From Actinoplanes sp. (lineage in GTDB: Bacteria; Actinomycetota; Actinomycetes; Mycobacteriales; Micromonosporaceae): a stretch of 64,000 bases of DNA. The first letter of the stretch is position 1. Every line of letters starts with the position of its first letter. Positions 6,027-28,797 of this stretch are shown here, in pieces. The translations under genes were made by a program, and so were the position numbers. Under the pieces are notes generated by a model. It had not been told where the DNA came from, did no database searches, and worked only from the letters and a program-made list of their open reading frames with translations. The stretch covers positions 6,143 to 70,142 of the forward strand of contig JAVHVY010000376.1 of assembly GCA_032160305.1 (NCBI GenBank). Reading direction: 5' to 3'.

Positions 6027-6824
6027 TCAGGGCTGTCGGAATCCCGCGTCGGTCAGCACCGTCAGTGCCGGGGCCGACTGCACGTAGGCCACGAAGGCGG
6101 CTGCTCCGGCCGCGTTCGGGGCGTTCTTCAGAGCGACGATCGGGTAGTCGTTGATCGCCTGGGCAGACTCGGGGAACTCGACGCCGTCCACGTCGCCGGC
6201 GGACGCCCCGGCGTCGGTGCGGTAGACCAGGGCCGCGTCCACCTCACCCAGCTTGACCTTAGACAGAGCGGCCTTGACGTCCTGCTCCAGGGTCACCGGG
6301 GTGATCTTGACGTTTGCCGCGGCCAGAGCTTTCTTGGCCGCGGCGCCACAGGGCACCTGCTCGGCGCAGAGAGCCACCTTGAGGTCGGGCCTCGCCAGCG
6401 CGGCCAGCGACGAGATGCCCTTCGGGTTGCCCTTCGGTACCGCGATCACCAGCTGGTTCCTGACGAAGGTGGTCGGGACGCCGGCACCGTCGCCGGCGTC
6501 CGTGACCGTCCGCATAGTCGCCGGGCTGGCGGCGGCGAAGACGTCCGCGGGCGCCCCGGAGGTGATCTGCTGGGCGAGCGCCGAGCTTCCCCCGTACGAG
6601 AAGGTCACGTGTGTTGCGGGGTGTGCCGCCTCGAAGTCCTTGCCGATCCGGGTGAATGACTCGGTCAGCGACGCCGCGGCGAGCACCGTGATCGGTCCGC
6701 TCACCGCGGCCGCCGCGCTGGAACCGCCGGACGGCGTCGATGTCGTGTCGCTTGCGCCGCCACACGCGGCGGTGCTCGCCAGCACCGCGGTCAGCGCGAC
6801 CGCGGCAGGCATCCTTGCCCTCAT
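6027..6824 (-). CDS. modA: Molybdate ABC transporter substrate-binding lipoprotein
   Basis: Lipobox TAC; motifs AAASL, SYGGSSALAQQI, VPCG, DAALVYRTDA. Confidence 0.93.
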   Translation of the reverse strand: MRARMPAAVALTAVLASTAACGGASDTTSTPSGGSSAAAAVSGPITVLAAASLTESFTRIGKDFEAAHPATHVTFSYGGSSALAQQITSGAPADVFAAASPATMRTVTDAGDGAGVPTTFVRNQLVIAVPKGNPKGISSLAALARPDLKVALCAEQVPCGAAAKKALAAANVKITPVTLEQDVKAALSKVKLGEVDAALVYRTDAGASAGDVDGVEFPESAQAINDYPIVALKNAPNAAGAAAFVAYVQSAPALTVLTDAGFRQP

Positions 6825-9821: not shown

Positions 9822-11354
9822 TCAGGCTCGCTTCCACCGCTGGTTCACGCTGCCTTTGCAGTCGTAGATGATCAGCTGGGCGCCGTTCGAGGTGTTTCCG
9901 GCCCGGATGTCCACGCACCGGCCGGACACCGGGTTGACCAGCTCACCTGCCGCGTCGAGGACGAACTGCTGGTTGTCCGCCGCGTTGCAGGTGTTGAGCT
10001 GCAGCACCGCGCTGTTGGACGTGGAGGCCTGGGAGACCTCGACGCACAGGTTGTACTTCGTCTGCAGCGCGCCGTTGCTGAACGCCCACTTCTGCGGGTC
10101 GGTGCCGTTGCAGGTGTACATCTGCAGGTCCTGACCGGGGGTGTACTTCCCCGCCGGCACGTCGACGCACTTGCCGTTCAAGGCGCTCACCAGTTGGTTC
10201 CCGCCGGCGGTGGTCAGCGTCAGCCCGTACGCGCTGAGGATCGGGTTGACCGGCTGGAACCAGGTGTTGCCGCCGACCGTGCAGTCGCCGGTGCTGCCCG
10301 ACGCGACACCCTGGGCCTGGTTGCCCGAGAGGAACGAGCCGCCCGAGTCACCCGGCTCGGCGCAGGCCGACGTGCGGCTCAGACCGGTGACCGTGCCCTG
10401 GGAGTACCTGATCGTCTCGTCCCGGCTCTGCAGCGTGCCGCAGCGCCAGCCGGTGGTCTGCCCGGAACGGCAGACCGAGCTGCCGATCGCCGCGTCCGTA
10501 GAGCCGGAGACCAGCACCATTGCCCTGTCGTAGTTGTTCACCCAGGGCTGCGACGTCCAGGTGTTGTCGCCGTCGGCGGTGCGGATGAACGAGTAGTCCT
10601 TGCCCGGGAACACCGAGCCGGCGAAGACGCCCTGGTCGACGCCCGTGTAGCCGGTTGTCTTGTCGCCCTTGCTGCCGCAGTGCCCGGCGCTGACGAAACC
10701 GCCGGCCACGGCGAAGCCGACCGAGCAGTAGTCGGATCCGTTGATCACGTACTGGTCGCCGCCGCGGATGTCGTCGATCGTCTTCGGCTGCTCGGCGTCG
10801 GTCTCGACCTTGACCGTGCCGGCGCCGCTGTCCTTGGCGAACTTCGTCGCGGCGGCCACATCGCCCGGGCTCGCGACGACGACCACGCTGTTGGTCTCGA
10901 CGTCGACGTACCAGCCGTGGATCCCGGCGCCGGCCCTGCCCGCGTTGCGGTCCAACGTGGCGCGGGCCCGGTCCAGCTCGGCCTGGCCGCGCTGCACGAT
11001 CCTCGCGTCCGCACCGCCGGCCCGCACCTCGTCGGCCTGGGCCGGGTCGGTGACGGCCACGGTCAGCTTGTCGGCGCCGTCCGGGATCCAGGCCCCGCCG
11101 TACGCGCTGCCCAGTTCCTTCTTCAGCCTGCGCTGGACCACCGGCGCGCCGGCCTCGGTGGTCAGCCGGGTGGCGATCTCCTCGTCGGTCAGGTTCAGGT
11201 CGCGGCGCATCGCGTCGACCATGCCCGGCGCCAGGTCGAAGCCGGCGCTCGGCGGGGGTGTCGGATCCTCGTCCGCGAAACTGACGAACGGGGTCGATGC
11301 GACCGCGGTGACCGCGACCGCGCCGACGACGATCCATTTCGTACGGAGAGCCAT
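9822..11354 (-). CDS. Secreted S1 serine protease (alpha-lytic/streptogrisin C-like) with prodomain and ricin B lectin domain, paralog 1
   Basis: Signal peptide, pro-region, catalytic triad SAGHC / DYSFI / GDSGG, C-terminal QxW repeats. Confidence 0.92.
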   Translation of the reverse strand: MALRTKWIVVGAVAVTAVASTPFVSFADEDPTPPPSAGFDLAPGMVDAMRRDLNLTDEEIATRLTTEAGAPVVQRRLKKELGSAYGGAWIPDGADKLTVAVTDPAQADEVRAGGADARIVQRGQAELDRARATLDRNAGRAGAGIHGWYVDVETNSVVVVASPGDVAAATKFAKDSGAGTVKVETDAEQPKTIDDIRGGDQYVINGSDYCSVGFAVAGGFVSAGHCGSKGDKTTGYTGVDQGVFAGSVFPGKDYSFIRTADGDNTWTSQPWVNNYDRAMVLVSGSTDAAIGSSVCRSGQTTGWRCGTLQSRDETIRYSQGTVTGLSRTSACAEPGDSGGSFLSGNQAQGVASGSTGDCTVGGNTWFQPVNPILSAYGLTLTTAGGNQLVSALNGKCVDVPAGKYTPGQDLQMYTCNGTDPQKWAFSNGALQTKYNLCVEVSQASTSNSAVLQLNTCNAADNQQFVLDAAGELVNPVSGRCVDIRAGNTSNGAQLIIYDCKGSVNQRWKRA

Positions 11355-11506: not shown

Positions 11507-13057
11507 TCAGCCGCGCCGCCATTTCTGGATCGCCGCGCCCGTGCAGTCCCAGGTTTGCAGCACCGCGCCGTCGTTGCCGTTCCAGTCCTTGATGTCCAGA
11601 CACTTGTTGGCCTGCGGGTTTATCAAGTCACTGGCGGCGGACAGCACCCATTGCTGGGCGGCGTTGCCGCTGCAGCCGACGATCTGAACGGCGGCGCCTC
11701 TGGCAGTCGAGGCCCCCGCCACGTCCATGCATTTGTTGTTCGACGTGACTAGTTGACCGCCGGTCGCCGTCCACTTCTGAGCGTTGGTGCCGTTGCAGCC
11801 CCACATTTGCAGCCGTACGCCGTCGGAGAAATTGGCGTTCGGCACGTCTACGCACTTGTTGTTCCAATTGCTCAGGATCGCGTTGCCGCCCCCGCCGCCA
11901 CCGCTCGTGGTCAGCGACAGGCCGTACGTGCCGAGGATCTCGTTCACCGGCTGGAACCACATCGTGCCCCCGGAGCTGCAGTTGCCGGTGCCGCCGGAGG
12001 TGACGCCCTGGGCCTGGTTGCCGGAGATCCACGAGCCGCCGGAGTCGCCCGGCTCGGCGCACGCGTTACTGCGCGACAGGCCGGAGACGGCGCCCTGCGA
12101 GTAGACGACGGTCTCGTTGCGGCCCAGGATCGTGCCGCAGCGCCACCCGGTGGTACGCCCGGATCGGCAGACCGAGCTGCCGATCGCGGCGTCCGTCGAG
12201 CCGGCCACCAGCACGTTGCCGCCCGAGTAGTTGTTGACCCACGGCTGCGGCGTCCATGAGCCGTTGGTGCGGATCCAGGAGAAGTCGTTGCCGGGGAACT
12301 GCGACGCGGCGAAGGTGCCCTGGGCGACGTTGTTGTAGCCGAGGGTGGGACTGCCCGCGCCACCGCAGTGGCCGGCGCTGACGAATCCGCCGGCGACCGC
12401 GAAGCCGATCGAGCAGAGCGTGTTGCCGTTGATCACGTACTGGTCGCCGCCGCGGATGTCGTACATCGGCCGGGGCTGTTCGGCACTGCTCCGCACGGTG
12501 ACGGCCCCGGCGCCGCTGTCGCGGGCGAACGTCGCCGCCGCCGCGGTGCCGCCGGGCTTGGCCAGGACCACCACGCTGTTGGTCTCGACGTCGACGTACC
12601 AGCCGCGTACGCCCGCGTCTCTCGCCGTGCTCGCGTGCCGGTCCATCGCCGAGCGGGCCGCGTCGAGCTCGGCCTGGCCACGCTTGACGACCTTGACGTC
12701 GGCGCCCTCGGCGTGGACCCGGGCGCCCTGTTTGGCGTCGGTGACCGCGACGGTCAGCCGGCTCCCGCCGGCGGGAATCCAGGCGCCGGCGTAGGCCTTG
12801 CCGAGCTGGCGCAGGAGCCGTCGCTGGACGACCGGGGCGGCGGCCTCGGCGGCGAGCCGGGCGGCGATCTGGTCGTCGGTGAGTTTCAGGTCGCGGCGCA
12901 GCGCGGCCAGCATGCCGGGCGCCATGTCGAAGCGGGAGTTGCCGGCCGCGGTGGGTGCGGCCGGCGCCGGACCGTTGGCGTAGCTGAACTGAGCTGTGAG
13001 GCAGACGGTGGTGGCGGCCACCGCGCCGACCACCAGCCAGCGCGCAGGACGGGGCAT
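11507..13057 (-). CDS. Secreted S1 serine protease with prodomain and ricin B lectin domain, paralog 2
   Basis: ATG 13057 (MPRPARWLVV), triad SAGHC / DFSWI / GDSGG, Gly linker, ricin repeats. Confidence 0.93.
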   Translation of the reverse strand: MPRPARWLVVGAVAATTVCLTAQFSYANGPAPAAPTAAGNSRFDMAPGMLAALRRDLKLTDDQIAARLAAEAAAPVVQRRLLRQLGKAYAGAWIPAGGSRLTVAVTDAKQGARVHAEGADVKVVKRGQAELDAARSAMDRHASTARDAGVRGWYVDVETNSVVVLAKPGGTAAAATFARDSGAGAVTVRSSAEQPRPMYDIRGGDQYVINGNTLCSIGFAVAGGFVSAGHCGGAGSPTLGYNNVAQGTFAASQFPGNDFSWIRTNGSWTPQPWVNNYSGGNVLVAGSTDAAIGSSVCRSGRTTGWRCGTILGRNETVVYSQGAVSGLSRSNACAEPGDSGGSWISGNQAQGVTSGGTGNCSSGGTMWFQPVNEILGTYGLSLTTSGGGGGGNAILSNWNNKCVDVPNANFSDGVRLQMWGCNGTNAQKWTATGGQLVTSNNKCMDVAGASTARGAAVQIVGCSGNAAQQWVLSAASDLINPQANKCLDIKDWNGNDGAVLQTWDCTGAAIQKWRRG

Positions 13058-13140
13058 GTCGTTCCTTCCGCGCACGCTCGCGCGGGGCGTCCGGGACGGG
13101 GACGGGACGCGCCGGGCGTGCTGACTTGGGGGAGTCAGGG

Positions 13141-15994: not shown

Positions 15995-17653
15995 ATGGGC
16001 CAGCCCGCGATCCTGACCGTCGACGACGATGCTTCCGTCTCCCGCGCCATCGCCCGTGACCTGCGCCGCCGGTACGGCGCCGACTACCGCGTCATCCGCG
16101 CCTCCGCCGCCGCCGAGGCCCTGGAAGCGCTACGCGAGATCAAGCTGCGCGGCGGCCGGGTCGCCGTGCTGCTCGCCGACTACCGGATGCCGCAGATGAA
16201 CGGCATCGAATTCCTCGAACAGGCGATGGATCTGTTCCCGCACGCCCGTCGCGCGCTGCTCACCGCCTACGCGGACACCGACGCGGCGATCTCGGCGATC
16301 AACATCGTCGACGTCGACCACTACCTGCTCAAACCCTGGGACCCGCCGGAGGAGAAGCTCTACCCGGTGATCGACGCCCTGCTGGACGCCTGGCAGGCCA
16401 CCGGCGACCGGGAGCTCGAGAACATCCGGGTGGTCGGGCACCGATGGAGCGAGCCGTCGTACCAGATCCGCGACTTCCTCGCCCGCAACCTGGTGCCGTA
16501 CCGCTGGTACGCGGCCGACGACCCGGAGGGCCGCCGGCTGCTCGACGCCGCCGGAGTCGGTCCCGAGTCGATCCCGCTGGTGGTGACCGCCGACGGCCGG
16601 GCGATGTCGCAGCCGACCAATTCCGAGGTCGCCGAGGCGGCCGGGCTGTCGGTCGCCCCGGAACGCGACTTCTACGATCTGATCATCGTCGGCGGCGGCC
16701 CGGCCGGCCTCGGCGCCGCCGTCTACGGCGCCTCCGAAGGGCTCAAGACCCTGATGGTCGAACGCCAGGCCGTCGGCGGCCAGGCCGGGCAGAGCTCCCG
16801 GATCGAGAACTACCTGGGCTTCCCGGACGGCATCTCCGGCGCCCAGCTCACCGACCGGGCCCGCCGGCAGGCCGGCAAGTTCTCCGCGGAGGTGCTGAAC
16901 ACCCGCGAGGTGACCGGGCTGCGTACGGACGGCTCGGCCCGGACGCTGACCTTCGACGACGGCGGCGAGGTCTCCGCGCACTCGATCCTGCTGGCCACCG
17001 GGGTCGCGTACCGGCCGCTGGTGGCGGACGGGATCGCCGCGCTGACCGGCTCGGGCGTGTACTACGGCTCGGCCTCCACCGAGGGCCCGTCCTGCGCGGG
17101 CAGCGACGTCTACATCATCGGCGGGGCCAACTCGGCCGGCCAGGCGGCACTGTTCTTCTCCCGCTACGCCCGCAGCGTCACCCTGCTGGTGCGCGGCGGG
17201 TCGCTTGAGGCGTCGATGTCGTACTACCTGATCCAGCAGCTCAACCAGATCGACAACGTGCACATCCGGACCCGGTGCGAGGTGCTCAGCGCGCAGGGCG
17301 ACGGTCACCTGCAGGCGATCACCATCTGCGACGGCAAGAACGGCATGGAGACGACCGTCGAGTGCGGATACCTGTTCGTCTTCATCGGCGCCGAGCCGCG
17401 CACGGACTGGCTGGGCCGCACCGTGGCGCGCGACGAGAAGGGCTTCGTCTACACCGGGCCGGATCTGCTGACAAACGGAACCCGTCCGGCGGGATGGGAT
17501 CGAGACCGCGATCCGTTCTACTTGGAGTGCAGTGTTCCCGGCATCTTTGCCGCCGGCGACGTCCGGGCCAACTCGGTGAAACGGGTGGCCTCGGCGGTCG
17601 GCGAGGGCGCGATGGCCGTCACGCTGGTCCATCGTTATCTGGAGGCGCAATGA
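15995..17653 (+). CDS. Response-regulator receiver fused to a thioredoxin-reductase-like FAD oxidoreductase lacking CxxC
   Basis: REC: VDDD, ADYRMP, LLTAY, LLKPW. Flavoprotein: GGGPAG, GGANSAGQAA, GIFAAGDVR. CxxC position reads YYGSASTEG. Confidence 0.93.
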   Translation: MGQPAILTVDDDASVSRAIARDLRRRYGADYRVIRASAAAEALEALREIKLRGGRVAVLLADYRMPQMNGIEFLEQAMDLFPHARRALLTAYADTDAAISAINIVDVDHYLLKPWDPPEEKLYPVIDALLDAWQATGDRELENIRVVGHRWSEPSYQIRDFLARNLVPYRWYAADDPEGRRLLDAAGVGPESIPLVVTADGRAMSQPTNSEVAEAAGLSVAPERDFYDLIIVGGGPAGLGAAVYGASEGLKTLMVERQAVGGQAGQSSRIENYLGFPDGISGAQLTDRARRQAGKFSAEVLNTREVTGLRTDGSARTLTFDDGGEVSAHSILLATGVAYRPLVADGIAALTGSGVYYGSASTEGPSCAGSDVYIIGGANSAGQAALFFSRYARSVTLLVRGGSLEASMSYYLIQQLNQIDNVHIRTRCEVLSAQGDGHLQAITICDGKNGMETTVECGYLFVFIGAEPRTDWLGRTVARDEKGFVYTGPDLLTNGTRPAGWDRDRDPFYLECSVPGIFAAGDVRANSVKRVASAVGEGAMAVTLVHRYLEAQ

Positions 17654-17724
17654 GCGAGCGTGTCGAGCCATTCACCTGGCACAGGGTGATCGCGGCAAGC
17701 GAAGAGAGTCGGGATCATGAGTGA
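17650..17724 (+). other. Intercistronic 24-codon mini-ORF, possible MIRU-like insert
   Basis: ATG 17650 overlaps the upstream TGA (ATGA); MSERVEPFTWHRVIAASEESRDHE ends inside the start of the kinase gene. Confidence 0.45.
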
Positions 17725-19192
17725 GCCCCAGGCTGTGGAAGCCATCTCGCTCCAGCCCTGCGACCCCGGCAAGCTGACCCGCACCGAGCTGCGCAGCCTG
17801 TTCCTGTTCGAAAAGCTGACGGATGAACAGCTCGACTGGATCGCCGCGCACGGCTGCACCCTGCACGCCCCGGCCGGCAGTCTGGTGCTCCGCGAGGGTG
17901 ACCCGGCCGAGCAGTTCTTCATCCTGCTCAGCGGTACGATCGCGCTGAGCCGGCGGATCGGCCAGGACGACGTCCAGACCAGCCGGACCGAGCAGTGCGG
18001 CGTCTACATGGGCGCGACGCAGGCGTACATCCGCGACGAGGGTGTCGAGCGTAAGTACATGGCCACCATGCGCGCGCTGGACGATGCGGATTTCTTCGTG
18101 CTCACCGCGGCCGACTTCGGCTGGATGATGCGCGAGTGGTGCCCGATGGCGATCCACCTGCTCGAAGGCCTTGCCCTCGGGATGCGCAACACCCAGGCCG
18201 CGATCAGCGAACGGCAGCGGCTGGTCGCCCTCGGCGCGCTCTCGGCCGGGCTGATGCACGAGCTGAACAATCCTGCCGCCGCCGCGTCCCGAGCCACCGG
18301 TGCGCTGCGCCAGCGGGTCGCCGGGATGCGCCACAAGCTCGGCATGCTGGCCGCCGGCAAGGTGCCCGCCGACCGCCTCGACGCCCTGGTCGAGTTGCAG
18401 GAAGAGGTCATCGAGAAGGCGGCGAAAGCGCCGGTGCTGACCGCCATGCAGGCCGCCGACCGCGAGGACGAGCTCGGCGACTGGATGGAGCAGAACAAGG
18501 TCACCGGGGGCTGGGACCTGGCGCCGGTCTTCGCCCAGGGCGGCATCGACGTCGACTGCCTGGGGGAGATCCGGGCCAAGGTGGCCTCGCCGGGCCTGCT
18601 CGACCAGGCGATCCACTGGATCGGCTACGCGCTGGAGACCGAGCAGCTGATGAGCGACATCGAGGACGCGACCGGCCGGGTGTCCTCGCTGGTCTCGGCG
18701 GCGAAGCAGTATTCGCAGCTGGACCGGGCCGCGCACCAGTGGATCGACGTGCACACCGGCCTGGACAGCACGCTGGTCATGCTGACCCACAAGATCGGCA
18801 AAGGCGTCAAGGTGGTCAAGGACTACGACCGCGGCCTGCCCGAGATCCCGGCGCATCCGGCCGAGCTCAACCAGGTCTGGACCAACCTGATCGACAACGC
18901 GGTGCAGGCGATGAACGGTGTCGGGACACTGACCATCACCACCTACAAGCAGGACGACTTCGTCTGCGTGTCGGTCGGCGACACCGGCCCGGGTGTGCCC
19001 GAGGAGCTGCGCCAACGGGTCTTCGAGCCGTTCTTCACGACCAAGCCGGTGGGTGAGGGTACGGGCCTGGGGCTGGACATCTCGTACCGGATCGTGGTCG
19101 GCGGGCACGGCGGGGACATCGTGCTGAACTCCCAGCCCGGCGACACCACCTTCACGGTCAGCCTGCCGATCACGGAGCCGTCCTCGCGTTGA
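17717..19192 (+). CDS. Cytoplasmic sensor histidine kinase with N-terminal cNMP-binding-like domain
   Basis: H box MHELNNP, N box VWTNLIDNA, G1 DTGPG, F/G2 FFTTKPVGEGTGLGL. N-terminal LFLFEKL...VLREGDPAEQFFILLSG. No transmembrane segment. Confidence 0.92.
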   Translation: MSEPQAVEAISLQPCDPGKLTRTELRSLFLFEKLTDEQLDWIAAHGCTLHAPAGSLVLREGDPAEQFFILLSGTIALSRRIGQDDVQTSRTEQCGVYMGATQAYIRDEGVERKYMATMRALDDADFFVLTAADFGWMMREWCPMAIHLLEGLALGMRNTQAAISERQRLVALGALSAGLMHELNNPAAAASRATGALRQRVAGMRHKLGMLAAGKVPADRLDALVELQEEVIEKAAKAPVLTAMQAADREDELGDWMEQNKVTGGWDLAPVFAQGGIDVDCLGEIRAKVASPGLLDQAIHWIGYALETEQLMSDIEDATGRVSSLVSAAKQYSQLDRAAHQWIDVHTGLDSTLVMLTHKIGKGVKVVKDYDRGLPEIPAHPAELNQVWTNLIDNAVQAMNGVGTLTITTYKQDDFVCVSVGDTGPGVPEELRQRVFEPFFTTKPVGEGTGLGLDISYRIVVGGHGGDIVLNSQPGDTTFTVSLPITEPSSR

Positions 19193-19333: not shown

Positions 19334-19840
19334 CTAGAGCAGGCCGCGGACGTAGGCGGCCTGGCCGGCGTGCTGGGTGTCGTCGTTGAGAACGCTGATC
19401 AGGCGCACGCCGAGGGTTACCGGCGGGTCCCAACGTTCGTCGACGACCCGGTCCAGGTCGGCGGCCGACAGGCTGTCGATGACACTCAGCGTGCGGCCGT
19501 GCACGGCGGTGTAGTAGTCCACCAGGACGTGCCAGCTCTGCGGGGCCACCGCCGCGACCTGCGCCGGGGTGTGCCCGTAGCCGATGTCGCCGGGTTCGGA
19601 CTTGAGGCCGAATGGCGGTCCCCAGTCGGCGTCGACATAGACCTGGTCGCCGTCGATCAGGTCCGCCACGTGGTGGTCCTGGACCCGGCTCAGGTGCCAG
19701 ACCAGCCAGCCGACCGGGTTGGCCCAGCCGGCCGGCGCCCAGCGCAACTGCTCCGGGGTCAGGTCCTTGACCGCGGCGCGGACCAGGCCTGGCAGCCGGC
19801 CGAAGGCGTCGTTGAGCACGTCGTTATGGTTCACGGTCAT
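19334..19840 (-). CDS. DinB family / mycothiol-transferase-like protein
   Basis: NPVGWLVWHLSRVQDHH, DERWDPPVTLGVRL, DDTQHAGQAAY; ATGA overlap with the upstream gene. Confidence 0.85.
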   Translation of the reverse strand: MTVNHNDVLNDAFGRLPGLVRAAVKDLTPEQLRWAPAGWANPVGWLVWHLSRVQDHHVADLIDGDQVYVDADWGPPFGLKSEPGDIGYGHTPAQVAAVAPQSWHVLVDYYTAVHGRTLSVIDSLSAADLDRVVDERWDPPVTLGVRLISVLNDDTQHAGQAAYVRGLL

Positions 19841-20619
19841 CCGCTCCCTTGCGAACTGATGACGGCGCCGCCGGCGGCGCCGCCCGAGCCGACCGAGCCG
19901 CCGCCGAAGCCGACCGAGCCGCCGCCGCCCGGGTTGGTGCCCGGGTTGGCGCCCTGCGCCGGCTGCCCGGTGGTCGGGGTGGCGCCGGTCGGCGCGGTCG
20001 TGGTGGTGCCGGCAGGGGAGGTCGTGGTGGCGGCCGTCGACGGGGTCGGTGCCGCGGGCGCGTTGTTCGCGCCGCTGGGCGGGCCGGCGGTCGGCGTGTT
20101 CGCCGGGGCCGGCTGCGGCGTTGCCCTGGGCGACTTCCCGACGTTGCCCAGCGTCGTGCCGGAGGTGTTGCCGCTCGCCCCGACCGCGGCGGCGATCGGC
20201 TCGCCCAGGGCTTTTTCGGCCAGCCAGATCCCGGCCATCGCCAACACGAAGACGGCGCCGGCGGCGGCGGCGACGTGGCCCCAGCGGATCTGCTGGCTAC
20301 GGGCCTGCTCGGGCAGGGTGTGTGACGGCAGGTCGTCCTCGGACGTCGCCGCGGCGACCGCCGGGGTGCCCACCGCGGCCGGCGCCTTGATGAAGGTCGG
20401 CGCCAGGGTCTGCAGCTTGTGTGCGCCGTGTTTCAGCGACCGCTCGTAGATCTCGGTGCCGACCGAACCGACGACGCTGGCCACGGCCGCGCCGATCAGG
20501 GTGCCGGCGACGCCGAGGAACGATCCGACGACCGCCGCGCAGACCGCGGCGAGGGCGCCGGCCAGGATTTTCGGGACGTTGATGTCGGAGAGGATCTTCT
20601 CCGGTGCGTGCTCGCTCAT
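19837..20619 (-). CDS. Hypothetical membrane protein with Pro/Thr/Gly-rich tail
   Basis: Hydrophobic LAGALAAVCAAVVGSFLGVAGTLIGAAVASVV, a second TM-like segment and a low-complexity C-terminus. Confidence 0.7.
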   Translation of the reverse strand: MSEHAPEKILSDINVPKILAGALAAVCAAVVGSFLGVAGTLIGAAVASVVGSVGTEIYERSLKHGAHKLQTLAPTFIKAPAAVGTPAVAAATSEDDLPSHTLPEQARSQQIRWGHVAAAAGAVFVLAMAGIWLAEKALGEPIAAAVGASGNTSGTTLGNVGKSPRATPQPAPANTPTAGPPSGANNAPAAPTPSTAATTTSPAGTTTTAPTGATPTTGQPAQGANPGTNPGGGGSVGFGGGSVGSGGAAGGAVISSQGSG

Positions 20620-20669
20620 GTCCTCCTCGCTGGAACGTCGATGTACTTCACGTCGTGCTCTACCGCATT

Positions 20670-20693
20670 GTTCCCGGGCTCGACGGGTTGAAC
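20670..20693 (-). promoter_or_regulatory. Possible SigB/SigF-family promoter for the membrane protein-dinB operon
   Basis: Minus strand GTTC-N14-GGGAAC, an imperfect match to the GTTT-N-GGGTA type consensus. Confidence 0.3.
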
Positions 20694-20741
20694 CAGCCTC
20701 TTTCGGCCGGCATGTCCCGGATCGGGCGGATGATCACGCCC

Positions 20742-22523
20742 TCACTGTGGGTGGATCAGGTGGCGGGTGAGCCAGTCGACAGCCTCGCGCAGATACTCCG
20801 CTCGCGACCAGCGGTGCAGCAGCTCGTGGCCCTCGTCGGGGAAGAGCAGGTACCGGTGCTCGGCGCCGCGGGCCAGCAGCGCCGCGACCACCTGCTCGGC
20901 CTCGATCACCGGGACGTTGCTGTCGTTCTCGCCGTGCACGACCAGTAGCGGCGCGCGCAGCCGGTCGATCCGGGTGATCGGCGACAACTCGCGCAGCAGC
21001 TCCGCGTCCAGCACCGGGTCGCCGTACTTGGAGACCGCGGCGGCCGCGATCCACGGCTCGGTGTGTTCGTAGAAGGTGGCGAAGTTGGCTATCCCGCAGA
21101 CGTCGATGCCGACCGCGAACAGCTCCGGGAAGGTGGTCAGGGCCGCCAGGGTGAGGTAACCGCCGTACGAGCGGCCCATCACGCCGACCCGGGCCGGATC
21201 GGCCACCCCGGTCGTGACCAGGTGGCGTACGCAGGAGCGGACGTCTTCGATGCCGTCGACGCGCAGCTTGCCGTTGTCCGCGTTCACGAAGGTGCGGCCG
21301 AATCCCGCCGAGCCGCGCACGTTCGGGGCGAAGACCGCGATGCCCCGGTCCACCAGCGACTGGAAGAGCGGGCCGTGCCCGGGACGTTCCTGTGCCTCGG
21401 GGCCGCCGTGGAACCAGACGACCGCCGGGTGCGGGCCGGGCGTGGCCGGGCGGAAGAGCCAGCCGGTCAGCTGCAGGCCGTCGTGGGCGCTGAAGCGCTC
21501 CAGGGTCGGCCGGACCGCGTTCGGGGCGGCCGGCTCGACCGAGACCGGGTGCAGGCCGGCGGCGTCGTACGTCCAGGTGCCGTGCGGCTGTCCGGGGCCC
21601 TCGGCGGTGAAGATGAGCGTGCTGCCGTCGGTGCTCCAGGCGATGCCGCTGACCACGCTGCCGGGCAGCGGCGTGACCGGCTCGCTGCCGCCGTGCACCA
21701 GGTCGAGGACGGTGAGCTCGGAGAGGCCGCCGCGGACGTTCCACAGCACGGCGACCCGGCGGCCGTCGGCGGTGAGCGCGAAGGACTCGACCTCGGCCGT
21801 CTCCGACGCGGCCAGCACCTCGGCGGCACCGTCCCGCACCCGGATCAGGACCGGATATTCACCGGCGTCGCTGCGGGCGTAGACGGAGCCGTCCGGGCCG
21901 AAGACCGCCGCTTCGCCGCTGGTGACCCACTCGTCGATGCCGGTGACGAGGTCGCGGACGACCACGTAGCGGCTGCCGCGCGGGCCGTGCCGCAGCAGGG
22001 CCCGGCGGCGGTCGACGCTGACGTCGAAGAGCGACAGCAACTCGCCCGCGGCGATCACCGTGCGTTCGGCGGTGACCGGGTCGATGACCAGGGTGGTGTG
22101 CAGATTCTCGGTGACGGCGAGCAGGGAGCGGCCGGGCAGCCAGCGGATGTTGTCGGCGGTGTCGGTGCCCATCCCGGCCACCTGGTGCAGTTCGGAGCCG
22201 TCCGGCCGGACCAGCCAGACCTCGTGCCGGGGCGCGCCGCCCGGGGCGAGCAGGCAGGCCAGCCAGCCGCCGCCGGTGGACCACTGGACCTGTGCGACGG
22301 GGTGCTCGCCGGTGTCGACCAGGAAGGCCAGCTCGCTGCCGACGGGCTGCACCCACACCGTGGGGGTGCCGCTGCGGTCCGAGACGTACGCCGCGTGCCG
22401 GCCGTCCGGCGACAACGCCGGCGACCAACTTCCGGACACTTCCGAAGGGAGGTCTCCCGAGCGCAGATTCGTCCAGCCAACGGGCAGAACGGTGACGTCG
22501 ACACGGTTGAGCTGACCGGTCAT
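20742..22523 (-). CDS. S9 family (prolyl oligopeptidase/acylaminoacyl) peptidase, cytoplasmic
   Basis: Beta-propeller N-terminus; HGGPE, NVRGSAGFG, nucleophile GRSYGG, HGENDSNVP, DEGH; no signal peptide. Confidence 0.92.
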   Translation of the reverse strand: MTGQLNRVDVTVLPVGWTNLRSGDLPSEVSGSWSPALSPDGRHAAYVSDRSGTPTVWVQPVGSELAFLVDTGEHPVAQVQWSTGGGWLACLLAPGGAPRHEVWLVRPDGSELHQVAGMGTDTADNIRWLPGRSLLAVTENLHTTLVIDPVTAERTVIAAGELLSLFDVSVDRRRALLRHGPRGSRYVVVRDLVTGIDEWVTSGEAAVFGPDGSVYARSDAGEYPVLIRVRDGAAEVLAASETAEVESFALTADGRRVAVLWNVRGGLSELTVLDLVHGGSEPVTPLPGSVVSGIAWSTDGSTLIFTAEGPGQPHGTWTYDAAGLHPVSVEPAAPNAVRPTLERFSAHDGLQLTGWLFRPATPGPHPAVVWFHGGPEAQERPGHGPLFQSLVDRGIAVFAPNVRGSAGFGRTFVNADNGKLRVDGIEDVRSCVRHLVTTGVADPARVGVMGRSYGGYLTLAALTTFPELFAVGIDVCGIANFATFYEHTEPWIAAAAVSKYGDPVLDAELLRELSPITRIDRLRAPLLVVHGENDSNVPVIEAEQVVAALLARGAEHRYLLFPDEGHELLHRWSRAEYLREAVDWLTRHLIHPQ

Positions 22524-22541
22524 ATCCGGATCCCTTCCCTT

Positions 22542-24314
22542 CTATATCTCCTTGTCCTGCAGCCACATTTCCAGCAGGGCCAGCTGCCAGAGCTGGTTCG
22601 CGCCGAGGGTGGTCCTGGGAGTATTCGGGTCGGTGAACAGGGCGTCAACGTACTCGGGCCGGAACAGCCCGCGGGCCCGTGCCGCCGGTGCGGTCAGCGC
22701 TTCCCGGACCATCTCCAGCATCGGTCCTTCGAGGTGCCGAATCCCGGGAACCGGGAAGTAACCCTTGGTCCGGTCGATCACCTCGTCGGGCACCACGCCG
22801 CGGGCGGCGTCCTTGAGCACGCCCTTGCCGCCCTGGGCCAGTTTCAGCTCCGGCGGGCAGGCCGCGGCCAGTTCGACCAGCTCGTGGTCGAGGAACGGCA
22901 CCCGCGCTTCCAGCCCCCAGGCCATGGTCATGTTGTCGACCCGTTTGACCGGGTCGTCGACGAGCATCACCTGCGAATCGAGCCGCAGGGCCGCGTCGAC
23001 CGCGGTGGTCGCGCCGGGCCGGGCGAAACTGGCCGCGACGAACTCGCGGCTGACGTCCGCGTCGATCAACCACTGCGGCGCGAGCTGGGCGGCCAGCTCC
23101 CGGTGCGGGCGATCGAAGAACTCATTGGCGTACGCGTCGACCGCCCCGCCCCGGGCCACGCCCGCCAGGGGCGGATACCAGCTGTACCCGGCCAGGATCT
23201 CATCGGCGCCCTGGCCGGACTGCACGACCGTGACCTGCTTCGCGACGTCCTCGCTGAGCAGGTTGAAGGCGATGCAGTCGTGGCTGACCATCGGCTCGCT
23301 CATCGCGGCGACCGTGCGGGCCACCGCGGGCAGGAACCGGTCCTTGCCGATCCGGATCTGGTGGTGTTCGGTGTCGAACTGCTTGGCGATCAGGTCCGAG
23401 TACGCGAACTCGTCGCCGCTCTCCCCGGCCGCGGCTTCGAAGCCGATGCTGAAGGTGCTCAGCCCGCGCTGCCCGTGCTCGGCCAGCAGCGCCACGATGT
23501 AGCTGGAGTCCAGTCCGCCGCTGAGCAGTACCCCGACCGGCACGTCGGCCACCATCCGGCGCTCGACCGCCGTACGCAGCTTCTCGTGCACCGCCTCGGC
23601 CCACTCGGCGCGGCTCATGGTCAGCGTCCGGGAGAACGACGCCGCCCAGTAGCCGCGCTCGGTGCTGCTTCCGTCCGCCTGGATGATCCGGACCGTGGCC
23701 GGCGGCAGCTTGCGCACCCCCTCGATGATCGTCCGTGGCGCCGGCACGACGGAGTGGAACGTCATGTACTGCTGCAGCGCGATCCTGTCCAGCGAGGTGT
23801 CCACGTCTCCCGCCGCCAGCAGCGCGGGCAGCGTCGAGGCGAAACGCAGCCGGCCCGGCCGCTCGGCCAGATACAGCGGCTTGATGCCGAGCCGGTCGCG
23901 GGCCAGCATCGTGGTCCCGCTGGCGTGCTCGGTGATCGCGAAGGCGAACATCCCGAGGAAGTGCCGCACACAGTCGGCGCCCCACCGGTGGTACGCCTTC
24001 AGGATCACCTCGGTGTCGGAGGTGGAGAAGAACGTGTAGCCGTGCCCGCGCAGCTCCTCGCGCAGCTGCTGATAGTTGTAGATGCAGCCGTTGAAGACCA
24101 GGGTCAGGCCGAGCTGCTCGTCGGTCATCGGCTGGGCGCCGGCGTCGGAGAGGTCGATGATCTTCAGCCGGCGGTGCCCGAAGGCCGCCCGGCCCCGCTG
24201 CCAGAGCCCTTCGCCGTCCGGACCGCGGGTGGCCAGGCACGGCAACATCCGGCGGACCGCTTCAGGGTCTGCCGGGCTGCCGTCGAACCTCAGTTCGCCG
24301 CCGATTCCACACAT
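22542..24314 (-). CDS. Asparagine synthase-like glutamine amidotransferase, N-acetylglutaminylglutamine amidotransferase type
   Basis: Ntn Cys (MCGIGGE), GHRRLKIIDL, FNGCIYNY, PP-loop SGGLDSS, GQGADE, LVDDPVKRVDNMTMAWGLEARVPFLD. Confidence 0.93.
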   Translation of the reverse strand: MCGIGGELRFDGSPADPEAVRRMLPCLATRGPDGEGLWQRGRAAFGHRRLKIIDLSDAGAQPMTDEQLGLTLVFNGCIYNYQQLREELRGHGYTFFSTSDTEVILKAYHRWGADCVRHFLGMFAFAITEHASGTTMLARDRLGIKPLYLAERPGRLRFASTLPALLAAGDVDTSLDRIALQQYMTFHSVVPAPRTIIEGVRKLPPATVRIIQADGSSTERGYWAASFSRTLTMSRAEWAEAVHEKLRTAVERRMVADVPVGVLLSGGLDSSYIVALLAEHGQRGLSTFSIGFEAAAGESGDEFAYSDLIAKQFDTEHHQIRIGKDRFLPAVARTVAAMSEPMVSHDCIAFNLLSEDVAKQVTVVQSGQGADEILAGYSWYPPLAGVARGGAVDAYANEFFDRPHRELAAQLAPQWLIDADVSREFVAASFARPGATTAVDAALRLDSQVMLVDDPVKRVDNMTMAWGLEARVPFLDHELVELAAACPPELKLAQGGKGVLKDAARGVVPDEVIDRTKGYFPVPGIRHLEGPMLEMVREALTAPAARARGLFRPEYVDALFTDPNTPRTTLGANQLWQLALLEMWLQDKEI

Positions 24315-24407
24315 CGTCCGACCTCCTTGGGGGCAGTCGGAAGCGCACCCAAGAAGGACCAGGCTCTGCGTCCGATATTTCGGTTCTGTATCTGAGTTGT
24401 GAACGTC

Positions 24408-27008
24408 TTAGCTCAGCAGCCAGGTGTCCTTCGAGCCGCCGCCGCGGGAGGAATTGACGATCATGCTCCCGGCCGGGGCGACCCGGGTCAGGGCGGCGGG
24501 CGCCACCACGGACTGCTTGCCGGTGAAGACGAAGGCGCGCAGGTCGACGTGTCGGGGCGCCAGCTGGTGGCCGTCGAAGACCGGGAGGGTCGACAGGTCG
24601 ACCACCTCCTGGGCGACCCAGCGATGCGGCGCGGCCTGGATCTGGCGCCGGAGCGCCTGCAGGTCCTCGCGCGAGGCGTACGGCCCGATCACGATCCGGT
24701 CGCCGCCGTAGCCGTCGACCGGTTTGCAGACCAGCTCCTCGAGCCGGCTGAGCACCTCGGAACGCTGCTCGCGGATCCCGCACAGGTAGGTCGGCACGTC
24801 CGCCAGCAGCGGCTTCTCACCCAGGTAGTACTCGATCAGCTGGTGGACGAAGGCGTACACGGCCTTGTCGTCGCCGATGCCGTTGCCCAGCGCGTTGGCC
24901 AGCACGATCGTGTCCGCGTGCAGGGCCGCGACCAGGCTCGGCCCGAGCGGCATCCCGTCGGCGCCGGGGGAGTGCACCAGGCTGTCCTCGCCCATCCGTA
25001 GGTAGATCACGTCCACCTTGTGCTTGCGGCCGTTCTCCAGCCGGACGACGATCGCGTCGTCGACCAGCAGATCGGTGCTGCGGACCAGCGGGACGCCCAT
25101 CTCCTCGGCGAGCATCCGGTGCTCGAACCAGGCCGAATCGTCCGGGCCCTGGCTGAGCACGACCACCTTCGGCTCGTCGTCGGCGGCCGGTCCGGCCGCC
25201 TCGAGCAGGGCCTGCCTGAGCAGCGCCGGGGTGTCTTCGATGCTGAGCAGGCCGGCCGGGCGGGGCAGCTCGGGCAGCACCGCCTCGGCGAGCCGGCGGT
25301 TCTGCATCGCGTAGCCGATGCCGGACGGCACCCGCAGGTTGTCCTCCAGCACGCACCAGTTGCCGGCTCCGTCGCGAACCAGGTCGACGCCGGCCACCTG
25401 GGTCCGGACCCCGCTGCGCCGGACCAGCGCGCCGCTGGGCCGCAACTCGGGCGAGCCGTCGATGACCCACTCGGGCACGACGCCGTCGGCGACGACGACG
25501 CGCTCGTTGTAGACGTCGTTGACGAAGGCGTCGAGCGCCTTCACCCGCTGGATCAGCCCGGATTCGAGCTGCTCGCGGTCGCGGGCCGGGACGATCCGGG
25601 GTACCAGGTCGAAGGGGAACAGCCGGACGGCCGCCTCCCCGGCCACGCTGAAGGTGATCCCGCGGGCGCGCTGTTCGTCGGCCTTGGCGTCCTCGCGGCG
25701 GCGCAGGCCCGCCGGTCCCAGAGCATTCAGGACATTCACGATCCCCGCGTACGCCGGGTTCACCTCGCCGTCCGGGAAGGCCTCGTCGCCGGCCGCCGCA
25801 TAGGGGGTGAGCCTGCCGGGGATCGTCTGCCCGTGCGGGCCGATGCCGGTCGCCCCGCCCCGGGTGTCGGCGACCACCAGGTCGACGATGTCCGAGATGC
25901 GGCCCCGGCGCTGCATCTCGCGGCGCTGCCGGGCGGCTGAGCTGCCCCGGCTGAGCTGCTGCACGGACAGGTCGAAGACCTGCTCCCAGTCGCCCAGTTC
26001 TTCGAGCTGCGGGCGCAGATCGCCGACCAGCCGTTCGACGGCGACCGCGGCCGGGATCGGCACGGGCGAGCGGGGCAGGTCGAGCAGGTCGCCCTCCAGG
26101 CCGGAACGGGCGGCGCGCCACATCGCCGCCCGGTGCAGCGGCGGCCGGGTCGCCCCGATCGGCTTGCCGGCCCGGTAATCCTGGCGGGCCCGCAGCACCA
26201 GGCCGCGGAACAGCCCGGCCAGCAGCACGACCGTGTCCGCGTCCGGGCTGGAGTCGGTGACCCGCAGCTCGACCGTGGGCAGGTGCGCGGAGGGGCGCAC
26301 GTCGAAGTAGATCATCTTCGGGTCGGTGATGGTGCCCGAGGCGATCAGGTCGGCGACCAGGGCGTCGTGGTCGGCGGCCGAGGTCACCTCGCCGCTGTCC
26401 CCGGCCGTGGGCCAGCGCATCCAGATCAGCGACCGGGTGCTGGCGTAGCCGGAGTCCTCACCCATCCAGTACGGCGAGCTGGCCGACAGGGCGAGCAGCA
26501 CCGGCAGCGCGGGCATCACCCGCTGGGCCACCGCGACGGCCTCGTCGGGGTCGGGGATGCCGACGTGCACCTGGGCGCCGCAGATCAACTGCTCGCGGAC
26601 CAGCAGCTGGTAGTCGTCCAGCATCCGGCGGTAGCGGGAGGTCGGGGTGACCGGCAGTGAGTCGAGGTCGACCAGTGGGACGGTGCCTGCGGCGACCAGC
26701 CCGAGCCCGAGCGATTCGGCGACACCGATGGCCCGCCGGCGCAGCTCGACGATCCCGTCCCGCAGGCCGTCCAGCGTCGCCGCGACCGGGGTGTTCGTCT
26801 CGACCACCGACCGGTGCAGCTCCGCCGAGTAATTGGCCTGGTCCAGCTGGTCGAGGATCTCGGGGGCGCGGGGTACGAGCTCCCGGGTGCGGAGGTCGAC
26901 GACGTGCAGTTCTTCCTCGACGCCGAGGGTCAGATCGGTGCTGAGATCGCTGCCTGCCTCCTCCGTTCCATCGCCCTCTGTGATCCTGAGTGACTCCGTC
27001 ATTACCAA
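24408..27008 (-). CDS. YbdK/GCS2 carboxylate-amine ligase fused to a circularly permuted type 2 ATP-grasp domain
   Basis: N-terminal LGVEEELHVVD, QLICGAQVHVG, DVRPSAHLPTVELR. C-terminal VLEDNLRVPSGIGY, NALGNG, KPVDGYGG, HVDLRAF, VNSSRGGGSKDTW. Confidence 0.92.
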   Translation of the reverse strand: MVMTESLRITEGDGTEEAGSDLSTDLTLGVEEELHVVDLRTRELVPRAPEILDQLDQANYSAELHRSVVETNTPVAATLDGLRDGIVELRRRAIGVAESLGLGLVAAGTVPLVDLDSLPVTPTSRYRRMLDDYQLLVREQLICGAQVHVGIPDPDEAVAVAQRVMPALPVLLALSASSPYWMGEDSGYASTRSLIWMRWPTAGDSGEVTSAADHDALVADLIASGTITDPKMIYFDVRPSAHLPTVELRVTDSSPDADTVVLLAGLFRGLVLRARQDYRAGKPIGATRPPLHRAAMWRAARSGLEGDLLDLPRSPVPIPAAVAVERLVGDLRPQLEELGDWEQVFDLSVQQLSRGSSAARQRREMQRRGRISDIVDLVVADTRGGATGIGPHGQTIPGRLTPYAAAGDEAFPDGEVNPAYAGIVNVLNALGPAGLRRREDAKADEQRARGITFSVAGEAAVRLFPFDLVPRIVPARDREQLESGLIQRVKALDAFVNDVYNERVVVADGVVPEWVIDGSPELRPSGALVRRSGVRTQVAGVDLVRDGAGNWCVLEDNLRVPSGIGYAMQNRRLAEAVLPELPRPAGLLSIEDTPALLRQALLEAAGPAADDEPKVVVLSQGPDDSAWFEHRMLAEEMGVPLVRSTDLLVDDAIVVRLENGRKHKVDVIYLRMGEDSLVHSPGADGMPLGPSLVAALHADTIVLANALGNGIGDDKAVYAFVHQLIEYYLGEKPLLADVPTYLCGIREQRSEVLSRLEELVCKPVDGYGGDRIVIGPYASREDLQALRRQIQAAPHRWVAQEVVDLSTLPVFDGHQLAPRHVDLRAFVFTGKQSVVAPAALTRVAPAGSMIVNSSRGGGSKDTWLLS

Positions 27009-27484
27009 GACCGCCTATGTCGTCGTCCAGTTGCCCGGAGCCTTGTCGGCTCGTGTGCCGAAACTGTCACGCGCCCATCTCGGCAATCGACCAAGCATGT
27101 CGATCGTGACACACGTTCCGATGAACATCAGTGCATGACGATTTCCGTCCGGAGCGCAACATTACGGATCGTGGTGGCCCGCTGCGCCGAAAGTGATGAA
27201 CCCTCCCAGTGTGCTCCGCCACGGCGTCGGCCGAACGGCCAGTCGGCGGGTGCCGCGACGCATCTATGCACGAACGGGCCAGCGAAAGGTGACGAAAAAG
27301 CCCGTAGACTGCAATTCGCCGGGTGCCGGACAGCGGTTCGGACGGGCGCCCCGCGACGGAGGGGTGGCGCGTGCCGAGCGTCGATCCGATGGTCCGGCCC
27401 GGCGAGGTCGTTCTCGTGGGGCCATCCGCGAGAAGATCGCATACTTCCGGTCGCTCGATCCGGTCGGTGCGGGAGAATAGCCCG

Positions 27485-27880
27485 GTGGCCAGACCCCGGA
27501 GCACGAACGCCTGCCCGTGCGGGCTCGGCCAGCCGTACGACGAGTGCTGCGGGCCGGCGCACCGCGGCCAGCCCCCGGTCAGCGCCGAGGCCCTGATGCG
27601 TTCCCGCTATGCCGCCTTCGCCCTCGACGACACGGCGTACGTGCTCAGCTCGTGGCATCCGGACACCCGGCCGGCGTCCGTCGAGTCCGATCCCGACCTG
27701 CGCTGGGTCGGTCTCGACCTGCTCGTCACCAGCGGCGGCGGGATGTTTGACACCGAGGGCGTCGTCGAGTTCGTGGCGCACTTCCGCGACGGCGGCCGGG
27801 CGGGCGAGATGCGCGAGGTGAGCCGCTTCGTGCGGCACGCCGGCCGTTGGGTCTACTGGGGCCCGCTGATCAGCGGTTAG
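27485..27880 (+). CDS. YchJ / SEC-C motif protein
   Basis: CPCG...[35 protein letters not shown]...WVY; GTG 27485 with RBS GGGAG. Confidence 0.88.
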
Positions 27881-27939
27881 CGCCCGGGTGTGCTGCAGTG
27901 GTCACCGGATCATCGTCGAACGTCAGGCAGGAGCGGTCA

Positions 27940-28797
27940 ATGTCGACCAGTCACCAGCGGCCGATCGAGGACGGCATCGTCCGCGACTTCAAGGTCAATC
28001 TCTCCTACGGCGGCTATCTGCACCTGGACGAGATCCTGTCGGCGCAGCACCCGGTCAGCGTGCCCGCGCACCACGACGAGCTGCTCTTCATCCTCCAGCA
28101 CCAGACCTCCGAACTGTGGCTCAAGCTCGTCCTGCACGAACTGCGCGCGGTGCAGCGCCAGCTCGCCGCCGACGAACTGCGGCCGGCGTTGAAGGGCCTG
28201 GCCCGGGTCAAACACATCCAGCGCACCCTGACCGAGCAGTGGTCGGTGCTGGCCACCCTGACCCCGAGCGAGTACGCCGAGTTCCGCAGCTTCCTCGGCA
28301 CGTCGTCGGGCTTCCAGTCGTACCAGTACCGGGCGGTCGAGTTCATGCTCGGCAACAAGGACGAACGGATGCTCTCGATCTTCGACGACGATCCGCGGGC
28401 CGGCGCGCTGCTGAGCGAGGCTCTGGAAGCGCCGAGCGTCTACGACGAGTTCCTGCGCTACCTCGCCCGGCACGGCCATCCGGTGCCCGTGGAGCTGCTG
28501 CAGCGCGACGTGCGGCTGCCGTATCAGTACAACGCCGACCTGGTTCCCGTCTTCCGGCACATCTACGAGAACGCGGAGCAGCACTGGGCGGCGTACGAGG
28601 CGTGTGAGGAACTGGTCGACCTGGAGGAGAACTTCCAGTTGTGGCGGTTCCGGCACCTCAAGACCGTGGAGCGGACCATCGGCGTACGGCGGGGGACCGG
28701 CGGATCGAGCGGCGTCGCCTTCCTGCGCGCGGCCCTGGACCTGACCTTCTTCCCCGAGCTGTACGCCGTCCGCACCGAGATCGGAGTGCCCCGTTGA
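27940..28797 (+). CDS. kynA: Tryptophan 2,3-dioxygenase
   Basis: [47 protein letters not shown]...GTGGSSG. Confidence 0.95.

Follow-up and report, generated by a model that had tools for sequence, protein, structure and literature searches.

What product emerges when the amidotransferase of a known compatible-solute pathway is encoded beside a ligase and a peptidase that are not its usual partners? This question is raised by a 64,000-nucleotide stretch of Actinoplanes sp. DNA (positions 6,143 to 70,142 of contig JAVHVY010000376.1, assembly GCA_032160305.1), hereafter the window. Three adjacent genes on its minus strand encode a fusion of two ligase domains, a glutamine-dependent amidotransferase of the AsnO type and an S9 serine peptidase. 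We found that this trio is conserved across many actinobacterial families, that its amidotransferase is orthologous to AsnO of the N-acetylglutaminylglutamine amide (NAGGN) pathway, and that within the genus Micromonospora the fusion and Ngg, the canonical NAGGN synthetase, do not occur in the same species. From these sequences we consider it probable, though well short of certain, that the trio is a single cassette for biosynthesis, a non-orthologous NAGGN-type variant that would make a small peptide amide as a compatible solute. The window has a G+C content of ~71% and comes from a 6.06-Mb assembly of 505 contigs that is 91% complete. Its proteins have their closest relatives in Actinoplanes and Winogradskya, and a search of sequencing runs detected the locus DNA solely in soil-metagenome DNA runs. 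The features of the locus, in window coordinates, are:

24408-27002, minus strand: fusion ligase gene, 864 amino acids from the ATG at 27002; the reading frame is open from a TTG at 27008 (866 amino acids)
25854-26930, minus strand: GCS2/YbdK-type carboxylate-amine ligase domain of the fusion, residues about 27-385 (PF04107, NF010041)
24414-25787, minus strand: circularly permuted ATP-grasp (CP-ATP-grasp) domain of the fusion, residues about 408-865 (PF14403, match to 3N6X)
22542-24314, minus strand: AsnO-type glutamine-dependent amidotransferase gene, 590 amino acids, with an N-terminal nucleophile (Ntn) glutaminase domain and an AsnB-like synthetase domain
20742-22523, minus strand: S9 serine peptidase gene, 593 amino acids, with an N-terminal beta-propeller and without a signal peptide
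27071-27096, minus strand: promoter-like element GCTTG-N15-GGGCGC, 70-95 nucleotides 5' of the ATG, kept in relatives

The G+C content at third codon positions (GC3) is 0.93-0.95 in the fusion, AsnO and S9 open reading frames (ORFs), which indicates that all three are real genes of a 71% G+C genome. No coding signature was found by GC3 in the plus-strand ORFs that overlap them. Alignment with relatives relocated the fusion start from the TTG at 27008 to the ATG at 27002, and an identical database protein is likewise 864 amino acids long. An earlier, sequence-only reading of this DNA had described three co-oriented genes with gaps of 93 bp (fusion/AsnO) and 18 bp (AsnO/S9) and intact catalytic motifs; we found the same coordinates, and the active-site residues are kept in orthologues. 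It had also noted that the expected partners of such enzymes, a GNAT-ATP-grasp synthetase, Alpha-E and transglutaminase, are missing, and our searches agree. Two Alpha-E proteins compared with the whole window by tblastn gave a best E value of 0.67, Ngg gave no match better than E=0.2, and neither a GNAT nor a transglutaminase was found among the flanking ORFs in Pfam scans that covered the flanks rather than every ORF of the window. What these scans of the flanking genes did identify was a tryptophan 2,3-dioxygenase, a kynureninase, a YchJ-like protein, a 260-amino-acid protein without a Pfam match and a histidine kinase.

We then asked whether the three genes belong together. Searching species-representative genomes with a profile built from nine diverse fusions yielded 80 loci, of which 64 hold a full-length fusion. 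An AsnO gene lies immediately downstream on the same strand in 59 of the 61 full-length loci with at least 2 kb of downstream sequence, at a median gap of ~57 nucleotides between high-scoring pairs, and an S9 peptidase gene follows AsnO in 51 of the 57 loci with at least 4 kb (one locus was assigned by eye). Clustering of all ORFs within 6 kb gave three recurring families, the ligase (81 of 82 loci), AsnO (78) and the S9 peptidase (62). No further partner, be it a GNAT, a transporter or a regulator, recurred in this clustering: the next family reaches 10 of 82 loci in mixed positions, linked cell-wall or export genes do not recur, and the other nearby ORFs (short-chain dehydrogenases/reductases, ABC ATPases, major facilitator superfamily (MFS) transporters and similar) are likewise scattered. 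Only three families recur and the flanks vary between genera; the locus is a self-contained three-gene cassette. It occurs in more than 12 actinobacterial families, including Micromonosporaceae, Pseudonocardiaceae, Streptosporangiaceae, Thermomonosporaceae, Frankiaceae, Mycobacteriaceae (in metagenome-assembled genomes, MAGs), Nocardiaceae, Propionibacteriaceae, Microbacteriaceae, Dermatophilaceae and Acidimicrobiales, as well as in a few MAGs of Myxococcota and Pseudomonadota. Co-conservation had been set in advance as a test of the trio, and the genes proved to be co-oriented and tightly spaced throughout this range.

The amidotransferase connects the cassette to a known pathway. It scores 958 bits against the NCBIfam equivalog TIGR03104, the N-acetylglutaminylglutamine amidotransferase (cut-off 570), and its Cys2 nucleophile (MCGI) and SGGLDS PP-loop are invariant over 96 AsnO orthologues. 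Fusion-linked and Ngg-linked AsnO proteins score equally against this model (940-968 bits) and are on average 64% identical between the two contexts compared with 69-70% within each, with 128 invariant columns. A single column separates the contexts at the 90% level, position 567, which is Arg in the cassette and Leu in Ngg-linked proteins (RTTLG versus LTPLR). With one discriminating column and 64% identity, AsnO probably sees a very similar acyl-peptide carboxylate in both contexts; one might speculate that Arg for Leu at 567 goes with a different cap, a carboxylate-bearing group instead of acetyl. In a maximum-likelihood tree of the 96 AsnO proteins, all 69 ligase/S9-linked members form one clade (SH-aLRT 96), which is sister to the Ngg-linked AsnOs of Micromonosporaceae. 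The protein did not qualify as a lasso cyclase (NF033535, 235 bits against a cut-off of 525). As a separate observation, one genome with a fusion trio also carries a second, orphan AsnO (904 bits) between a DEAD-box helicase gene and a sigma-70 family gene; this genome is 80% complete with 4% contamination, and the copy may be from another organism.

Few compatible solutes are of the peptide type, and NAGGN is one of them. In its canonical trio, AsnO is accompanied by Ngg, a GNAT-ATP-grasp protein, and by an M42 peptidase, and in the summary given by PMC8070244, which cites Sagot et al. 2010, Ngg acetylates glutamine and joins a second glutamine to it before AsnO amidates the C-terminus. In the same bacterial family as our organism, NAGGN has been chemically proven in Micromonospora provocatoris (PMC8146288). 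A canonical synthetase elsewhere in the genome could supply the substrate of AsnO, as the sequence-only reading recognized. The best match to Ngg (TIGR03103) in the source genome, however, reaches 183 bits against a cut-off of 569 and lies within a 1195-amino-acid ORF of another contig, and no Ngg was found in a 100%-complete genome of the same genus or in any of 12 named genomes that carry the trio. In a survey of Micromonosporaceae (61 genomes, with one genome from each of 60 genera), TIGR03104-class AsnO was present in 15, abutting the fusion in eight, Ngg in seven and both in none. Among 101 Micromonospora species, Ngg is found in 69, the fusion in 18, neither in 14 and both in none, where independence would predict 12.3 species with both; the probability of zero overlap is 1e-11, a value that is uncorrected and inflated by shared ancestry. 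This strict exclusivity, together with the near-identical amidotransferases in both contexts, backs the view that the fusion stands in for the GNAT-ATP-grasp synthetase. An in-situ swap of Ngg for the fusion was considered and rejected: tblastx of fusion-type against Ngg-type Micromonosporaceae loci revealed AsnO as the only common element, with unrelated flanks.

Both halves of the fusion ligase belong to recognizable families. The N-terminal half matches PF04107 at 182 bits (residues 28-304), NF010041 at 358 bits, above the cut-off of 332 for this YbdK/GCS2 subfamily, and TIGR02050 at 270 bits (cut-off 176). It carries the acidic metal-binding motif GVEEE, with E32 invariant, and its relatives in the PDB are the YbdK structures 1R8G and 1TT4. 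After a linker of about 20 residues, the C-terminal half contains a complete CP_ATPgrasp_2 domain (PF14403, COG2308; 411 bits, residues 470-844), for which the nearest solved structure is 3N6X (E=1.6e-100, residues 408-865). Nine fusion representatives that are 38-60% identical share 104 invariant columns, including GNGxxDDK and the C-terminal NSSxGGGxKDTW. The full-length CP_ATPgrasp_2 domain is common to the fusion and to the CP-ATP-grasp/Alpha-E/transglutaminase triad (COG2308-COG2307-COG1305, often with Anbu), and its version in the fusion shares 43-48% identity with stand-alone CP-ATP-grasps, among them members with Alpha-E attached or encoded next. Unlike in that triad, the domain is here joined to GCS2 and has AsnO and S9 as partners, with Alpha-E not found in the window and transglutaminase not found in the flanks. 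Stand-alone GCS2 paralogues, 55-60% identical to the N-domain of the fusion, also exist; they have no conserved neighbours and were uninformative.

The third gene encodes a protein with a Peptidase_S9 domain (PF00326) and a PD40 propeller and is not an M42 peptidase. Its catalytic triad, Ser452/Asp534/His566, with the serine within GxSYGG, is kept in 59 of 59 orthologues. In the PDB it is closest to acylamino-acid-releasing enzymes (1VE6, 2QZP, 5L8S), and the protein resembles the S9C acylaminoacyl-peptidase-like serine peptidases and is predicted to be cytoplasmic. Enzymes of the acylamino-acid-releasing type remove N-blocked residues. Other hydrolases take this slot in relatives: an EgtC-like Ntn amidohydrolase in Actinomadura and Spirillospora (L046:12462-13262 and L060:12363-13130), and a PuuD-like C26 enzyme elsewhere. 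The two EgtC paralogues begin with Met-Cys and score 215 and 210 bits against TIGR03442 (cut-off 218.65), and no other ergothioneine genes were found near them. EgtC and PuuD-type C26 enzymes hydrolyse gamma-glutamyl amides. The cassettes with EgtC paralogues mirror the EgtA/EgtC pair of ergothioneine biosynthesis, in which a GCS2-fold gamma-glutamyl ligase is matched with an Ntn gamma-glutamyl amidohydrolase. They differ from the ergothioneine system in lacking EgtB and EgtD; the EgtA model reaches only 22 bits, and the hydrolase in the window is S9 rather than EgtC-like. In Pseudofrankia sp. BMG5.36, the S9 gene is replaced by one for a 157-amino-acid GNAT (L049:12970-13443) after the fusion and AsnO. 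No other locus seen had an acetyltransferase linked to the cassette, and this one bears on whether some cassette variants give an acetylated product.

Variation is not limited to the hydrolase. In a phylum sample of 401 genomes, 41 carry TIGR03104-class AsnO, which is linked to Ngg in 29 and to other partners in 12. The alternative partner sets, as seen in this survey and in the search for fusion loci, include the fusion trio itself and a GCS2-AsnO-S9 arrangement found in Streptomyces (three loci and three surveyed genomes, one locus with an alpha/beta hydrolase gene next in line). No CP-ATP-grasp homologue was found anywhere in three complete Streptomyces genomes (E<=1e-20). The Streptomyces AsnO is nested within the fusion clade of the AsnO tree, and the Streptomyces cassette therefore looks like a fusion cassette that has lost its ATP-grasp. 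Further sets comprise a divergent GCS2 with a separate CP-ATP-grasp, AsnO and DUF1028; AsnO and CP-ATP-grasp next to a C26 peptidase; and AsnO-S9-CP-ATP-grasp in Nakamurella and Modestobacter. At yet another locus, TIGR03104-class AsnO is directly preceded by a gene for a YcaO-domain protein (L033:6714-8756) and followed by one for a flavin amine oxidase, and YcaO may be a further type of AsnO partner.

Building on the gene content, the intact active sites, the co-conservation, the exclusivity with Ngg and the orthology of AsnO, we propose a route in which the residues joined, the bond assigned to each ligase domain and the osmoprotective role are predictions. The fusion ligase would synthesize, at the expense of ATP, a short capped peptide of two or three residues whose C-terminal carboxylate is free. 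One amide bond would be formed by its GCS2 domain, most likely as a gamma-glutamyl-type N-terminal cap in place of the acetyl group contributed by the GNAT domain of Ngg, and the other by its CP-ATP-grasp domain, as the counterpart of the Gln-Gln bond of Ngg. AsnO would adenylate the C-terminal carboxylate and then amidate it with glutamine-derived ammonia. The S9 peptidase would degrade or recycle the product once it is unneeded, a role taken by M42 in the canonical trio. Such a product would be a small, nitrogen-rich, glutamine-type peptide amide in the compatible-solute role of NAGGN. We suggest a gamma-glutamyl-type cap because of the chemistry of the GCS2 fold and because the third slot is filled by EgtC-like, PuuD-like and acylamino-acid-releasing-type hydrolases.

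Several observations weigh against this route. The gamma-glutamyl cap is argued solely from family-level precedent for GCS2 and from the hydrolase types in the third slot. The single-ligase variants (GCS2 only or CP-ATP-grasp only) imply that one ligation suffices for AsnO, so it is uncertain how many ligations the fusion performs and in which order, and the variants may not all make the same product. The two ATP-dependent ligations proposed in the sequence-only reading need a qualifier, as the Streptomyces cassette runs with GCS2 alone. In addition, AsnO is missing beside two of the fusions, the fusion-type and Ngg-type loci are at different chromosomal positions, and the exclusivity in Micromonospora may reflect one or a few evolutionary events. 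A broader version of the proposal, possible but in our view doubtful, is that many Actinomycetota make gamma-glutamyl-capped glutamine amides as compatible solutes instead of NAGGN. Candidate makers would be Actinoplanes, part of Micromonospora, Pseudonocardia, Streptosporangium, Microbacteriaceae and environmental Mycobacterium, with Streptomyces as a one-ligase maker, and example products would be gamma-Glu-Gln-Gln-NH2 for the fusion and gamma-Glu-Gln-NH2 for GCS2-only cassettes.

Could the cassette instead make NAGGN itself? The GCS2 domain would then carry out ATP-dependent N-acetylation (or acetylation would be provided in trans), the CP-ATP-grasp domain would form the Gln-Gln bond and AsnO would amidate the dipeptide. 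Amidotransferases that are nearly indistinguishable between contexts but for one diagnostic column, and strict exclusivity with Ngg within one genus, would be expected here too. The same account is favoured by the small GNAT after AsnO in Pseudofrankia, by the description of a Frankia asnO cluster with a non-homologous 'ngg' (PMC5563000) and by the isolation of NAGGN from a Micromonospora (PMC8146288), a genus with both cassette types. However, the reported NAGGN is sufficiently explained by the canonical Ngg of 69 of 101 Micromonospora species, the cassette has no conserved GNAT partner, and the Streptomyces variant, being without a second ligase, cannot yield an acetylated dipeptide. Moreover, ligases of the glutamine synthetase/glutamate-cysteine ligase fold activate glutamate-type carboxylates, and to our knowledge acetate would be an unprecedented substrate for them. 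Overall, we think it quite unlikely that NAGGN is the product.

A product that is not an osmolyte, such as a store of nitrogen or glutamine, a signal or a precursor of the cell envelope that happens to be made with AsnO-like amidation, appears unlikely to us. It would suit a cassette whose common hosts are ordinary soil actinomycetes, not halophiles, and that is dispensable, given that 14 of 101 Micromonospora species have neither cassette type. Yet the mutual exclusion with Ngg speaks for a shared cellular role, the logic of a synthetase, an amidotransferase and a peptidase is retained, and no cell-wall or export genes are linked. Finally, the genes might act on a ribosomal peptide or protein, as in a tagging system or a pathway for peptides made by the ribosome and modified after translation (RiPPs), with the ligases adding residues or isopeptide bonds, the AsnB-like enzyme amidating or cyclizing, and the S9 peptidase maturing the product or removing the modification. 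RiPP pathways do include AsnB-like enzymes, ATP-grasp ligases and S9 peptidases, weak sub-threshold matches to lasso cyclase and lasso isopeptidase models were seen, and Iyer et al. in 2009 reportedly predicted CP-ATP-grasp and GCS2-fold ligases to be peptide-tagging enzymes. Against this, no small ORF is conserved upstream of or within the cassette across distant loci, and its gaps measure 93 and 18 bp; no transporter, recognition-element protein or immunity gene recurs; and the amidotransferase is an AsnO orthologue rather than a lasso cyclase. A search for a precursor peptide by tblastx and blastn of the 500-nucleotide upstream regions of 67 loci returned only a nucleotide-level promoter-like block among close relatives. 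We consider such a role very unlikely, and protein modification, which the sequence-only reading had kept as a side option, gained no support, with neither a conserved small ORF nor a recognition protein.

How does the cassette compare with what has been described? Similar to the NAGGN trio (TIGR03104/TIGR03103/TIGR03106; asnO-ngg of S. meliloti, PA3459-PA3461 of P. aeruginosa), to whose AsnO its amidotransferase is orthologous, it combines an ATP-dependent synthetase, an amidotransferase and a peptidase in co-oriented genes, and the two occur in the same bacterial families. The synthetase of the NAGGN trio is a GNAT with a classical ATP-grasp, whereas that of the cassette is GCS2 with CP-ATP-grasp and has no acetyl-CoA-dependent domain. 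The peptidase is a metallo M42 enzyme (TIGR03106) in the former, as we saw after Ngg in a canonical actinobacterial locus, and a serine S9 enzyme in the latter. Gene order is AsnO-Ngg-peptidase as opposed to ligase-AsnO-peptidase, at a different chromosomal locus. In Casuarina-infective Frankia, Oshone et al. (PMC5563000) reported that AsnO shares more than 60% identity with known examples but the putative Ngg less than 15%, and that a peptidase adjoins asnO; they retained the NAGGN label and described no GCS2-CP-ATP-grasp ligase. Of published work, these clusters come nearest to an earlier record of a non-canonical AsnO partner, and they may be a counterpart of the cassette. FRAAL1888 of Frankia alni, induced by polyethylene glycol and assigned to 'NAGGN synthesis' in PMC5768760, was examined as another candidate and set aside, being a 30-kDa amidotransferase beside glutamine synthetase-like genes and not the cassette AsnO. 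Our literature search found no paper tying a carboxylate-amine ligase or CP-ATP-grasp to AsnO or NAGGN, although the survey of Iyer et al. 2009 may list the neighbourhood. The present analysis contributes the mutual exclusion within one genus, the one AsnO column that is diagnostic, the lack of CP-ATP-grasp across whole Streptomyces genomes and the hydrolase swaps.

The region upstream of the fusion gene offers a lead on regulation. Five Actinoplanes and Winogradskya relatives carry the GCTTG-N15-GGGCAC form of the element, within surrounding sequence that is not conserved, and GCTTG-N15-GGGCRC is a candidate promoter; the trio may be transcribed as an operon. It resembles what we take to be the -35/-10 pattern of actinobacterial stress sigma factors of the SigB/SigF type (GTTT-N15-17-GGGTAY), a resemblance that serves as a lead only. 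One Mycobacterium MAG has GCTTC-N16-GGGTAC at a similar distance upstream. No structured RNA leader was found by Rfam searches over 19500-28000 (E<=0.1), and scans of the locus for terminators and sigma-70 promoters gave nothing meaningful.

Upstream of the cassette in the window and divergent from it lie a YchJ-like gene, a tryptophan 2,3-dioxygenase gene and a kynureninase gene. The YchJ-like ORF (27323-27880, plus strand; 185 amino acids, SEC-C motif and NTF2-like domain) is supported by GC3 and is not kept beside the cassette in other genera. It overlaps the annotated start of the dioxygenase (27847), which makes a later real start of the dioxygenase probable. On the other side, 122 bp 3' of the S9 gene and on the same strand, lies the 260-amino-acid ORF (19837-20619, minus strand, GC3 0.93). 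It is kept only among Actinoplanes relatives, sometimes with an MFS transporter gene between it and S9, and probably lies outside the cassette. Farther downstream and convergent to the cassette (15995-19192, plus strand), a fusion of a response-regulator receiver with a thioredoxin-reductase-like flavoprotein precedes a histidine kinase that binds cyclic nucleotides, and this pair is found downstream of the cassette in several Actinoplanes genomes (four loci). Two tandem paralogous genes (9822-11354 and 11507-13075, minus strand) encode secreted proteases that combine an alpha-lytic protease prodomain with a ricin-B lectin domain at the C-terminus.

These results have consequences for how AsnO genes are read. 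The NAGGN pathway serves as a marker in genome mining, and antiSMASH has a 'NAGGN' cluster class, which has been discussed for Micromonospora (PMC11537254). The amidotransferase alone does not define the NAGGN pathway, as it has other partners in 12 of the 41 AsnO-carrying genomes of the phylum sample and in 18 of 87 Micromonospora carriers. Since the ligase and the peptidase of such clusters are different, predictions of NAGGN as their product are likely wrong or unproven. The cassette, which is carried by Streptomyces and Micromonospora strains, provides a tractable three-gene route to the function of YbdK/GCS2 ligases and of the CP-ATP-grasp ligases of Anbu-type operons. If gamma-glutamyl-capped amides are indeed made, the cassette would give the first physiological substrates for these two large orphan families, the YbdK/GCS2 and COG2308 ligases, and it could reveal a new stress-protectant metabolite of soil actinomycetes.

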